DNA of 64,000 nucleotides from a bacterium (GTDB lineage Bacteria; UBA8248), in assembly GCA_965261085.1 (NCBI GenBank), contig OZ253442.1, forward strand, positions 1,856,001-1,920,000, given 5' to 3'. Positions 15,898 to 22,625 of this stretch are shown in pieces. The notes under the pieces were generated by a model that searched no databases, was not told the origin of the DNA, and saw only the letters and a list, made by a program, of their open reading frames with translations. A program made the position numbers and the translations under genes. The number at the start of each line of letters is the position of its first letter. Positions within the stretch are counted from its first letter, which is position 1.

Positions 15898-16005
15898 CGC
15901 ATTTCCCCGCATTCGCCGTCATGGATCAGACATGAGCGTGTGGCATAATTTTCCCGCGAATCGGTGAATCGGATCCCTCCGGAATTTCTGAAAATATCGA
16001 TAAAT
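15898..16005. repeat. Left arm of a long imperfect inverted repeat (partner 22520-22625)
   Basis: 15975-16005 is the exact reverse complement of 22520-22550 (31 bp); 15898-15922 matches 22601-22625 at 24/25. Confidence 0.9.
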
Positions 16006-16201
16006 ATGCGTGGTAATTCGATAAATTAGGTACATCAAGCTATTTTCATCGGCCATTGAATCCAGCTATCCTGTTGATATCATTTCAAAAATATATTTTT
16101 GCCAACATCATCCAGAATCCACTTTCCGCAACATGTAATCAAATCGAAAGCGGATTCATTATAATTTCTGCGCATCCTATCGGGTTCGTGTCCGGTAATC
16201 G

Positions 16202-17026
16202 ATGGGGTGGACGCGCCCTCCCGGCAACTTCACACTGTGGCAAGGTGACGTCGTTTACCGCCCTGGAGGAGGTACCCATGGAACAAGGTCACATCATCGG
16301 CATCGACTTGGCGAAACAGAGCTTTCAACTCCACGCGAGCGCGCGCGAGGACGAGGAGGCGAGGCGCCTGATGAGCATCCCGGGGATCGGGCCGATCTGT
16401 GCGATGGCTATCCAGGCCTTCGCGCCGCCGGTGGAGAGCTTCCGTCGCGGGCGTGACTTCTCCGCCTGGCTCGGGCTCGTCCCCTGGCAGCACTCCACCG
16501 GGGGCAAGGCGCGGCTGGGCAGGATATCGAAGATGGGCCAGCGCGACGTCAGGCGGCTGTTGATCATAGGCGCGATGACGGTGGTGGGCTGGGCGGTCCG
16601 GTGAGGCGCGCCGCCGGGCTCATGGCTGGCCCGGATGCTGGCGCGCAAGCCGCGTATGCTGGTTGCAGTGGCGCTGGCCAATAGGATGGCGCGCATCGCC
16701 TGGGCGCTGATGACGAACAAGGAAGTCTACCGGGAACCGGCGCCGGTCGCCTGAGCGGGCAGGCGCGCGGATAGCGCCCGGAGGAATGTGAGCAGGTCGG
16801 AGGACAATGTAGGGGCAAACGGTCATCGAGACGGGATCGGGAAAACCAGGACCGAATGGAGAGCTTTCAAGCTCAAGTAAGCGATTCGGACCCGATCCGC
16901 GCATCTCCATACGGGCCCGCGGCGAGTGACATGCCGCAATCGAGAGGCCGGATACACGAATGCGCCTGACCACTTTGCGCCGAACTATCCAAAACAACGC
17001 TTGCATTTTTGGGCGCGTCCATACAG
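16202..17026 (+). mobile_element. Non-autonomous, internally deleted IS110-family (IS1111-group) element
   Basis: Sub-terminal inverted repeats TGGACGCGCCC (16208-16218) / GGGCGCGTCCA (17011-17021), a transposase remnant, and a ~255-bp non-coding segment 3' of the gene; exact ends approximate. Confidence 0.8.
16278..16754 (+). pseudogene. IS110-family transposase pseudogene
   Basis: IGIDLAKQSFQLH joined directly to the C-terminal domain (RLMSIPGIGP, RDFSAWLGLVP, HSTGGK, VALANRMARIAWA); in-frame TGA at 16602-16604. Confidence 0.9.
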
Positions 17027-17219
17027 ATCGTTTCGGAACGCCTTGTCCACGGCGCAGTTGCGGCCCCACAGCAGAATTCATCCAAAATAACACGATAACA
17101 ACACGTAATTGTCGCAAACGCTCACACTAAGTTCACACATTTTGTGCTTAAATGGGTCTGGTAATTTACAGTGCTCCGTAGAGCAACTATGGGGCGAAAC
17201 TCGGGGAGTTTTCGTTGCG

Positions 17220-17335
17220 TGTGAGTGTTTGGGGGGGATCTTCCGGATCCCTCGACGAGGAGAAACGAGTTGAGCCGGGGCGCCCATTGCCCCGGATTCA
17301 CTTGAGAAAGGTGACAGACCATGCCTGACGACTAT
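17220..17335 (+). promoter_or_regulatory. Conserved 5' leader and RBS of the PPC cassettes (copy 1)
   Basis: About 76 nt nearly identical to 20661-20736, with GGATC..GATCC and CCGGGGC..GCCCCGG hairpins; CACTTGAGAAAGG-N9-ATGCCTGACGACTAT occurs before all three genes. Confidence 0.6.
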
Positions 17336-20279: not shown

Positions 20280-20654
20280 ATGCCTGACGACTATTCATCC
20301 ACGACGCAGACCACCGGCGCGGTGGAGGTGGGCGGCTCGGCGACGGGCGAGATCGAGACCAGGAGCGACCGCGACTGGTTCGCGGTAACCCTGGAGGCGG
20401 GCAGGATCTACCGGATCGACCTGGAGGGTTCGGATTCCAGGGGCGGCACCCTGTACAACCCCTATCTGCGCGGGATCTACAACGCGGACGGCGTCCGCTT
20501 CGCCGGCACGACGGACGACGACGGCGGCGCGGACCGCAACAGCCGGGTGGAGTTCAGGGCGGAGGAGAACGCCACCTACTATGTGGCGGCCGGAGCCTAG
20601 AGAGACCGGGAAGGCGCCTACACGCTGTCGGTGACGGCGGAAGAGGTCATGTGA
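20280..20654 (+). pseudogene. Single PPC-repeat cassette with in-frame TAG (20598-20600)
   Basis: MPDDY start; after the TAG the frame continues RDREGAYTLSVTAEEVM-stop, like its sister genes. Confidence 0.75.
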
Positions 20655-20805
20655 GGTGCGTGTGAGCGTTCTGGGGGGATTTTCCGGATCCATCGACGAG
20701 GAGAAGCGAGTTGCGCCGGGGCGCCCATTGCCCCGGCTGGGCGGACCCATCGCCCCTCTCGGGGCGGGCCCTATTTCTTTATTCACTTGAGAAAGGGGAC
20801 AGACC

Positions 20806-22395
20806 ATGCCTGACGACTATTCGGCTAATACGGAGACCACCGGCAGGGTGACGGTTGGCGGCTCGGCGACGGGCGAGATCCAAGCCGGGTTCGACCGCGA
20901 CTGGTTCGCGGTGACCCTGGTGGCGGGCAAGACCTACTGGATCGACCTCGAGGGCTCGCAGACCGGGGGCGGAACCCTGTTCAACCCGTATCTGCGGGGG
21001 GTCTACGACGCGGACGGCGGTCGCCTCCCACGCACGTCGAACGACAACGGCGGTGAGGGCCGCAACAGCCGGCTGACGTTCACGGCCGGGGAGGACGCCA
21101 CCTACACGGCCGGGGAGGACGTCACCTACTATGTGGCGGCCAGCGGGCTTGGATACAGACTAGGCACCTACACGCTGTCGGTGACGGAGGTCCCGGACGA
21201 TTTCGAGGCCGATACCGGGACGAGCGGCGTGGTGGAGGTCGACGGCTCGGCGACGGGCGAGATCGAGACCGGGGGCGACCGCGACTGGTTCGCGGTGGAA
21301 CTGGATGCGGGCAGGACCTACCTGATCGACCTGGAGGGTTCGCATACCGGGGCCGGCACCTTGAGGGACCCGTATCTGCGCGGGGTCTACGACGCGGACG
21401 GCAACCTCCTCGCCGGCACGACGAACGACGACGGGGGCGCGGGCCTCAACAGCCGGGTGACGTTCAAGGCCGGGGAGGACGCCACCTACTATGTGGCGGC
21501 CGGCGCTTATGGAGACAGGGAAGGCGACTACAAGCTGTCGGTGACGGAGCTTGCGTACGACGATTTTGCGGCCGGGATCGAGACCACCGGCAGGGTGGAG
21601 GTCGGCGGCTGGACGACGGGTAATGTCGAACCCGGGGGCGAGATCGAAACCGGGTACGACCGCGACTGGTTCGAGGTGCAACTGCTTGCGGGCACGACCT
21701 ACCGGATCGACCTCGAGGGCCGGAAAACCGCGGACGTCACCATGACGGATCCATATCTGTACGGGATCCACGACGCGAACGGCGACATCATCCACGGCAC
21801 GGTCGACGACAACGGGGGTAGATTGAACGTTAACGACCGGGACAACTACAACAGCCGGGTGACGTTCACGCCGACGGCGGACGGCGCCTACTACGTGGCG
21901 GCCGGCGGCGCGGGAAGCGATCCAGGCACCTACAGGCTGTCGGTGATGGTCGCGGACGATATTGCGGACGATTTTGCGGACGGGACCGAGACCACCGGCG
22001 AGGTGGTTGTCGACGGCTCGGTGACGGGCGAGATCGAGACCAGGGGCGACCAAGACTGGTTCAAGGTCGAGCTCGATGCGGACACGACCTACCGGATCGA
22101 CCTCGAGGGCTTGGTGATCGTGGACGACCGCTTCCTGGAGAGCCATTTGCCCCCGAATGTGTGGATGGCGTTTTACGGGAACCCGTACACATACGGGGTG
22201 AACACGTATCTGCGCGGGGTCTACGACGCGAATGGCGTCCGCCTCGCCGGCACGACGAACGACAACGGGGGCTATGGCCCCGACAGCCGGGTGACGTTCA
22301 CGGCGGAGGAGGCCGCCACGTACTATGTGGCGGCCGGCGCCTGGTATAACGGGGAAGGCGCCTACACGCTATCGGTGGAAGAGGAGGTCATGTGA
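20806..22395 (+). CDS. Protein with four PPC-like repeats
   Basis: Four repeats (DD[FY]...TTG.V.V.GS.TGEIE...DRDWF.V.L); MPDDY start and EEVM end. Confidence 0.85.
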   Translation: MPDDYSANTETTGRVTVGGSATGEIQAGFDRDWFAVTLVAGKTYWIDLEGSQTGGGTLFNPYLRGVYDADGGRLPRTSNDNGGEGRNSRLTFTAGEDATYTAGEDVTYYVAASGLGYRLGTYTLSVTEVPDDFEADTGTSGVVEVDGSATGEIETGGDRDWFAVELDAGRTYLIDLEGSHTGAGTLRDPYLRGVYDADGNLLAGTTNDDGGAGLNSRVTFKAGEDATYYVAAGAYGDREGDYKLSVTELAYDDFAAGIETTGRVEVGGWTTGNVEPGGEIETGYDRDWFEVQLLAGTTYRIDLEGRKTADVTMTDPYLYGIHDANGDIIHGTVDDNGGRLNVNDRDNYNSRVTFTPTADGAYYVAAGGAGSDPGTYRLSVMVADDIADDFADGTETTGEVVVDGSVTGEIETRGDQDWFKVELDADTTYRIDLEGLVIVDDRFLESHLPPNVWMAFYGNPYTYGVNTYLRGVYDANGVRLAGTTNDNGGYGPDSRVTFTAEEAATYYVAAGAWYNGEGAYTLSVEEEVM

Positions 22396-22519
22396 CGTGC
22401 GCGGCGGCGTTCGCAGGGCCTCCGCGGGAGGCCCTGCCGGTGCCCGGCGGCTGTTCTTCACCATCGGTCCGTTCAGCGCCTTCGTCAATCTTCCGGCGCC
22501 TCCCCGGCGAGCAGGGCCA

Positions 22520-22625
22520 ATTTATCGATATTTTCAGAAATTCCGGAGGGTTCGATTCACAAATTCGCGGGAAAACCTGGCGCGTCCGCGCGTCTGCCCG
22601 ATGACGGCAAATGCGGGGAAATGCG
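22520..22625. repeat. Right arm of the long inverted repeat (partner 15898-16005)
   Basis: Reverse-complement match as described for the left arm. Confidence 0.9.

Follow-up and report, generated by a model that had tools for sequence, protein, structure and literature searches.

Inverted arms around a PPC-repeat gene cluster as probable copies of a dispersed intergenic mosaic repeat in an uncultured bacterial lineage

In contig OZ253442.1 of a bacterium from the lineage UBA8248 (assembly GCA_965261085.1, positions 1,856,001 to 1,920,000, a stretch of 64,000 nt hereafter called the window), two arms of about 107 bp, inverted with respect to each other, enclose a cluster of genes encoding proteins with PPC repeats, and the question raised by this locus is whether the arms delimit a device that varies or moves the enclosed genes or belong to something more ordinary. 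An earlier note, made from the sequence, had proposed that the arms (15898-16005 and 22520-22625) are either the termini of a cargo element or recombination sites, in a candidate locus for the diversification of PPC proteins. On balance, and with moderate confidence, we favour another explanation, namely that each arm is one member of a family of mosaic repeats, built from a box and a core, that is scattered between genes throughout the lineage, and that the block is an ordinary PPC gene cluster lying between two such copies. The block is more likely neither a programmed switch nor a dedicated transposon, and nothing indicates either.

The inverted repetition itself was confirmed. Global alignment of 15898-16005 with the reverse complement of 22520-22625 gave 91 identical columns out of 110, that is, about 107 bp of 83% homology, distributed very unevenly: the outer box is identical at 24 of 25 positions and the inner box at 31 of 31, and the middle reaches about two-thirds (~36/54) with three small indels. 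The window contains exactly two copies of the inner 31-mer CCCTCCGGAATTTCTGAAAATATCGATAAAT, at 15975-16005 on the plus strand and at 22520-22550 on the minus strand, and 100 dinucleotide shuffles gave no match to it, even when up to three mismatches were allowed; the outer box likewise matches only at 15899-15925 (+) and 22598-22624 (-). Similarity between the arms ends abruptly on both sides, and the 15 nt outside them (..GAATCAGTC on the left and CACCCGGTT.. on the right) contain no direct repeat, so that a target-site duplication is absent. The window yielded no second copy of the arm-bounded block.

Both arms are built from the same parts. The left arm (15898-16005, plus strand) opens with a box at 15898-15925, in which TCATGG follows the two 10-bp units GCATTTCCCC and GCATTCGCCG; a spacer of 50 nt separates this box from the initial portion of a core (15975-16005). 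The conserved unit extends past the inner border drawn in the earlier note, to about 16036, because the core continues on the plus strand (16006-16036) with a diverged iteron, ATGCGTGGTAATTCGATAAATTAGG, the counterpart of ..CACGGGGTTTTTCGATAAATT.. in relatives, and an nhmmer profile of the core matches the left arm from 15961 to 16036. The right arm (22520-22625, minus strand) comprises a box at 22598-22625, a spacer and a core cut immediately after ..ATCGATAAAT, at a point that abuts the 3' flank of the third PPC gene. GC content is 0.61 in the box and 0.34 in the core.

Box and core recur in other genomes. Species-representative genomes, one per species in a collection without the source genome itself, were scanned with the exact 21-mer AATTTCTGAAAATATCGATAA, which gave 23 loci (referred to below by L numbers). 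Fifteen of these are real and form 14 non-overlapping regions in six contigs of metagenome-assembled genomes (MAGs) with GC contents of 0.53-0.63; the other eight are chance matches in genomes with GC contents of 0.27-0.51, with no similarity past the word. A profile of the core identified 20 cores in 331 kb (the window plus the related loci), including three diverged copies that the exact word had missed, and real copy numbers must therefore lie above those sampled. In the family, the core reads (G)AATTTCTGAAAATATCGATAAAT TTAGATAAATTCACGGGGTTTTT CGATAAATT.., is AT-rich and 55-85 nt long, has a sharp left edge and helically phased iterons, and carries the small palindromes AATTTC-T-GAAAAT and TATCGATA. 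The box, CCCGCATTTCCCCGCATTTGCCG, is GC-rich and composed of two tandem 10-bp units, often followed by TCATCGG. Their arrangement is not fixed. Where the box stands upstream of the core and shares its orientation, its distance is about -80 in L007, in L019, in two copies of L022 and in the two window arms, about -160 in L006, in L017 and in another copy of L022, and -278 in L004; in L003, L009 and L020 an inverted box follows on the downstream side, at +138 to +157. The spacer varies in sequence and in length (~55 to 250 nt) and is not conserved between loci, and there are one to three units per locus, with no long arrays seen. The arm is thus a dispersed repeat of varied context and orientation (20 cores in the window and 14 related loci), which is one of the findings that the earlier note had itself named as speaking against its proposal.

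The genes around the related cores are diverse. Among 123 open reading frames (ORFs) within about 4.5 kb of these cores, Pfam searches identified the 3' end of recA with def-fmt, LysR-gltB, ada, and cysteine-dioxygenase-like, acyl-CoA dehydrogenase, hydantoinase, glyoxalase/CoxS-like, AIR-synthase-like and DinB-like genes; a tRNA-Phe gene is present in two related loci. None of the 123 ORFs encodes a PPC or cadherin domain, and the association with surface-protein genes is confined to the window, one of 11 independent locus classes, so that the arms do not hold up as specific sites of a PPC diversification locus. Recombinases near cores were found only at L019 (two tyrosine integrases) and L012 (a DDE transposase 2.3 kb away). 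The earlier note had asked whether arm copies come in inverted pairs around PPC or cadherin genes or next to a recombinase. Inverted pairs do occur, in three of the 11 locus classes including the window, but those of the related loci have no PPC or cadherin gene around them, and adjacency to a recombinase is limited to the L019 integrases.

Judged by eye, the core is directed at the 3' end of a convergently oriented gene at 10 of the 15 loci and at the start of a gene at the others, and thus has no consistent promoter-like orientation; comparison by eye of core coordinates with the 123 scanned ORFs found no core inside an ORF with a Pfam match. No tRNA or tmRNA that might serve as an integration target was found at any core in the window or the related loci. 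Neither the arm nor the canonical core had a match in the plasmid and phage collections. Eleven window proteins had no syntenic match in the related loci, where only weak paralogue matches were seen (the short-chain dehydrogenase to L007 and two M24 peptidases to L016).

Four orthologous pairs of loci keep the core in place, namely L002/L008 (81% identity over 1317 nt), L006/L017 (84% over 863 nt), L011/L012 (90% over 1301 nt) and L009/L022 (83% over 3758 nt). In L006/L017 the box and the core are the best-conserved non-coding stretches, and the sequence past the box cannot be aligned. Because the two modules are conserved across genomes and at non-orthologous loci and the DNA between them is not, the pattern of the arms, two conserved boxes around a degenerate middle, would reflect purifying selection on the boxes rather than recent duplication. 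The boxes are kept by selection, probably as protein-binding sites, in line with the suggestion of the earlier note, which had been drawn from the two arms and now finds the same boxes conserved, and the spacer variable, in other genomes.

Other functions for the arms were considered. No Rfam family reached its gathering score in the window or in seven loci, which gave no sign of an RNA gene or riboswitch; single-sequence fold z-scores against shuffles ranged from -1.27 to +0.71, no better than the shuffles, and the consensus structure of a six-copy alignment amounts to only -3.6 kcal/mol. A protein-coding function of the arms was rejected. In the outward direction both arms begin with ATG ACG GC(A/G) AAT GCG GGG AAA TGC, but their frames immediately diverge or stop, after 13 codons in the right arm, and no ORF over the arms had a Pfam match. 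One core subfamily contains, as judged by eye, a small ORF of 18-20 codons, M-x4-LMQIIISENIDK(I/F)R-stop, in L009 (9973-10029), L020 (~9964-10029), and L011 and L012 (minus strand, ~9990-10050). In L012 an AGA to CGG change keeps the arginine; the frame is not kept in the window or L022 copies, and this small ORF is probably incidental. No sigma-70 promoter or terminator was matched inside either arm.

By analogy, the closest known kinds of repeat would be the bacterial interspersed mosaic elements (BIMEs) and, especially, the Neisseria intergenic mosaic elements (NIMEs). In BIMEs an AT-rich motif can sit between GC-rich motifs. Like BIMEs, composite intergenic repeats in which a few motifs alternate in orientation and which act as binding sites for proteins (PMC2817692), the repeat described here is an intergenic dispersed mosaic of few motifs in varying order and orientation. 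Repetitive extragenic palindromic (REP) sequences, however, are imperfect palindromes that form stem-loops, whereas box and core have no significant fold, and the copy number seen here is far lower. NIMEs are described as dRS3 repeats (ATTCCC-N8-GGGAAT) flanking RS elements, with insertion sequence (IS) elements within arrays and array pairs that can surround genes, and have been proposed to favour recombination and variation in the surface-protein genes that they flank, possibly via a site-specific recombinase acting in trans (PMC1797815). Both NIMEs and the present repeats are non-coding, intergenic and modular, with short GC-richer repeats alternating with AT-richer units (PMC1797815), but the dRS3 signature is absent from the arm sequences, no long arrays occur here, the lineage is different and the link to surface-protein genes is seen in a single locus class. 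Since it lacks both the stem-loop that defines REP/BIME and the dRS3 that defines NIME, the repeat is a new family of a known kind, and no description of such repeats in this lineage was found among the papers listed by the literature searches.

Under the explanation that we favour, the modules would be binding sites of host DNA-binding proteins (a nucleoid-associated protein, a regulator or a recombinase), and the family would spread and persist in the manner of BIMEs and NIMEs. The 6.5-kb block would then be a group of PPC/cadherin paralogues in partial decay, together with a dead IS, that came to lie by chance between two inverted copies. The arm pair could nevertheless support a rare RecA-type inversion, or offer portable homology through which DNA from relatives replaces the block.

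Several observations weigh against this explanation. A second core lies 2.5-6.5 kb away in three of the 11 independent locus classes (the window, L009/L022 and L020) and all three core pairs are convergent, a small count that was made after the data had been seen. The L009 pair forms mosaic inverted repeats of about 200 nt, and the 3.7-kb segment between the cores of L009 and L022 is 83% identical, with rearranged flanks that are only patchily syntenic. In three cores the consensus breaks off early, within the first 27 bases or shortly after them: the right arm of the window and the L019 core both leave the consensus right after ATCGATAAATT, and a third, at about 1330 in L022, decays after about 12 nt. 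These truncations hint at breakage or recombination within the core. In addition, the copy numbers from the exact-word scan are lower bounds, and the invariance of those 21 bases is given by construction. Finally, the two arms resemble each other across the spacer (~67%) more closely than they resemble any copy in another genome (72-74% overall to L022), and a local duplication of the whole arm unit might explain this likeness.

The paired and truncated cores are also what the idea of an exchangeable module builds on, according to which a recombinase encoded elsewhere acts on the cores, and two convergent cores enclose a module that undergoes inversion or exchange among replicons or strains, the PPC block being one such module. 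We regard this as improbable, on evidence that is divided. The convergent pairs in three of 11 classes, the L009/L022 segment conserved between rearranged flanks, the two cores broken at the same position (one of them beside two tyrosine integrases) and an imperfect dyad within the core, TCTGAAAATA-TCGA-TAAATTTAGA (7/10 arm positions, by eye), all speak for it. Most cores, however, are solitary (13 of 20 have no partner in the sequence examined, about 10 kb on each side in most loci), and orthologous loci retain such solitary cores in place. The modules of L009 and L022 run collinearly in one orientation, contain a tRNA-Phe gene and have surroundings that are syntenic in part, and no module turned up in more than one context. 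In the window, moreover, the right core is truncated, so that the two sites are not equivalent, and no serine or tyrosine recombinase domain was found in 75 ORFs across the 64 kb. By eye, the core shows no match to the dif consensus, from which the lineage's own dif site may differ, and likenesses to the dif, hix and CodY-box consensus sequences, also compared by eye, provide leads rather than tests.

A precedent for modules of this type is provided by the dif (pdif) modules of Acinetobacter plasmids, described as gene blocks of ~0.6-2.3 kb that lie between recombination sites of inverse orientation and are mobilized in trans (PMC6160057). The PPC block shares with these modules, as they are reported there, the inversely oriented sites, the lack of a recombinase inside and an IS element settled next to a site (PMC6160057). 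The dif sites differ in being 28 bp long with the organization XerC-6 bp-XerD, whereas the core has only an imperfect dyad and long iterons, and the sites described here are mostly solitary and chromosomal. The recurring convergent inverted pairs keep a weaker form of the module idea alive, although we hold it unlikely as well. Slightly more doubtful still is the specific proposal that convergent pairs of box-core elements bound chromosomal modules of 2.5-6.5 kb that are inverted, exchanged or used as landing pads for islands, as a counterpart of the plasmid dif modules or of a NIME mechanism.

Two loci deserve description in this context. In L019 a candidate integrase island starts at the truncated core, where two tyrosine integrase genes with Arm-DNA-binding domains begin about 220 nt after the core (7451-9915, minus strand) and are followed by a gene for a DEAD/UvrD-type helicase of 1807 aa (1857-7280, plus strand); this integrase-helicase region may be an island integrated at the core. 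In L022 (contig OZ244713.1) a 3.6-kb tandem duplication ends in cores (9943-10049 and 13569-13674, 97% identity over 1011 nt) and carries a box, a core and the 5' portion of a DinB-like gene; in its second copy this gene is disrupted after about 85 codons. A degenerate core of the same locus adjoins a tRNA-Asp gene.

A regulatory role was given the same low probability as the exchangeable module. Here, box and core would be operator or architectural sites of a regulon, with the arms regulating the short-chain dehydrogenase gene on the left and the PPC genes inside the block. The conservation of two short motifs across genomes with a variable spacer would fit such a role, as would the palindromes and phased A-tracts, which are typical of operators and bent DNA, and the location of the core 98-150 nt before the start of cysteine-dioxygenase-like genes (L011 and L012), DinB-like genes (L022 and the second L009 copy) and an integrase gene (L019). 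The predominance of cores facing the 3' end of a convergent gene points the other way, the neighbouring genes have no common function, and the right arm has no gene to regulate, given that the 3' end of the third PPC gene lies on its inner side and the 3' end of an autotransporter gene on its outer side.

Far less probable is a non-autonomous transposon, a cargo element resembling miniature transposable elements with inverted repeats (MITEs), with the arms as terminal inverted repeats. Inverted repeats of about 107 bp with sharp outer borders and the lack of a transposase inside are compatible with it, and MITEs such as the Correia element are likewise small, non-coding, dispersed, often near genes and equipped with inverted repeats (PMC1797815; PMC3184786). 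However, MITEs consist of one short unit each, which carries terminal inverted repeats of its own and comes with a target duplication, whereas the repeats here are 6.5 kb apart, lack the duplication and are each a mosaic. The inner ends are also unequal owing to the truncated right core, no second copy of the block or autonomous parent was found in the plasmid and phage collections or in the 14 related loci, and in other copies box and core occur separately and in other arrangements. The weakest candidate, the programmed invertible switch or shufflon for PPC surface-protein variation proposed in the earlier note, draws on inverted repeats around genes for repeat-rich, probably surface or secreted proteins that are transcribed from the strand opposite to all neighbours between 13.8 and 29 kb, and is highly improbable, considering that the 64 kb contain no invertase or integrase, that no promoter or ORF crosses an arm or is arranged in such a way that inversion could switch it, that two of the three PPC genes and the IS are broken, and that the family to which the arms belong occurs next to unrelated genes.

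If the dispersed mosaic repeat is the correct explanation, the locus teaches caution, in that a long inverted repeat around surface-protein genes in a repeat-rich genome need not be a switch or a transposon. The family would also be a useful marker, with two short motifs kept at orthologous and non-orthologous sites in an uncultured lineage, and these motifs point to a putative DNA-binding protein and to places of gene-order breaks and island insertion. Were the exchangeable module true instead, gene shuffling by a recombinase in trans would extend from Acinetobacter plasmids to chromosomes of an uncultured phylum, and such shuffling would be linked to variation of adhesin-like proteins.

The contents of the block agree with the earlier note, which had listed an IS1111 remnant and three PPC-repeat genes between the arms, both confirmed by Pfam; to these we add an AT-rich stretch between the left core and the IS remnant (16006-16200, GC 0.38), with one sigma-70-like match at 16056-16083. 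The IS110/IS1111-family remnant (~16200-17030, plus strand), recognized by Pfam, inverted repeats and DNA similarity, has perfect 11-bp inverted repeats of its own at 16208-16218 and 17011-17021, and the arms are thus distinct from the IS ends, as had been stated. Its transposase is internally deleted: the Transposase_20 domain is present (E 7.9e-22), the DEDD domain was not detected, and inspection by eye shows almost nothing between the N-terminal IGIDLAK motif and the C-terminal domain. The claim that the block contains no intact transposase or recombinase stood as well. The remnant is, judging from its DNA similarity to annotated elements of this family (67-70% identity, up to ~17030, in 386 plasmid records), a deleted descendant of the IS110 family.

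The three PPC genes lie on the plus strand, each with its own start codon and ribosome-binding region inside the block. Gene 1 (17321-19829) encodes a PPC-cadherin-PPC protein and is frameshifted near 18800, giving the ORFs 17321-18847 and 18819-19829; gene 2 (20280-20654) encodes a single PPC domain and has an in-frame TAG at 20598-20600. With the deleted IS, the frameshift and the nonsense codon, decay is thus evident within the block. Gene 3 (20806-22395) is intact and encodes a protein of 529 aa with several PPC repeats according to Pfam; it belongs to a family with more than 1000 relatives at E < 1e-10, and its closest relatives are 97%, 90% and 89% identical, yet 644-647 aa long, which indicates that the number of repeats varies among close relatives; the 97% identical one, of 647 aa, is encoded on a 6.4-kb contig. 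The PPC genes share their start regions (80 nt with 91% identity, 17216-17295 versus 20657-20736) and have 3' flanks in common, including a hairpin. Upstream of gene 2 there is an AT-rich promoter-like region (20100-20257) with TTGATT-17-TATAAT at 20215-20243, headed by a box-like 13-mer, ACCGCATTTCCCG, at 20095-20107, where the similarity to the arms stops (E 0.067). A hidden third arm at this place was considered and rejected, since only the 11-mer CCGCATTTCCC at 20096 is shared (E 0.067). Apparent extra copies in the window at 57169-57207 and 59019 were also discarded, being 8-12-mers that occur by chance within coding sequence. Pfam gave no match for thirteen further ORFs within or near the block.

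To the left of the block lies a gene similar to short-chain dehydrogenases and enoyl-ACP reductases (14720-15559, minus strand, assigned by a Pfam-type domain match), as does a TauE gene. To the right lies an autotransporter gene with a C-terminal beta-domain (23051-26113, minus strand), convergent with the PPC genes, and downstream of it two adjacent paralogous genes for M24 peptidases of the creatinase/prolidase type (26760-29026, minus strand). Elsewhere in the window, a gene for a dihydroxy-acid/6-phosphogluconate dehydratase (39653-41397, minus strand) is split into overlapping ORFs for its N-terminal (40147-41397) and C-terminal (39653-40273) domains; this split and the frameshift of PPC gene 1 could be real pseudogenes or indel errors of the assembly. 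One conserved flavoprotein encoded in the window has 76-78% identity to proteins assigned by name to MAGs of Nitrospinota, Nitrospinae or Tectomicrobia, other relatives reaching up to 95%, and by protein similarity the closest named relatives of the lineage are Nitrospinota and Tectomicrobia MAGs.

Two further dispersed repeats were observed in the window. The first, just outside the right arm (22790-23010), is ~190-220 nt long, has the ends CGTCATTCCGG..CCGGAATGACG and a hairpin, GGATTCCGGCTTTCGCCGGAAT, and looks MITE- or REP-like. It is 76-88% identical to L009 5307-5423 and 16205-16275, L011 11177-11364, L003 15494-15558 and L012 16501-16581, and a fragment of it, TGGATTCCGGC, lies at 15858-15870, to the left of the left arm. 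The second is a short repeat of 86 nt (9427-9512) with 85-86% identity to L020 5687-5772 and 6965-7050, which are in opposite orientations. As both families are common to the window and the same MAGs, the lineage appears to be rich in small repeats.

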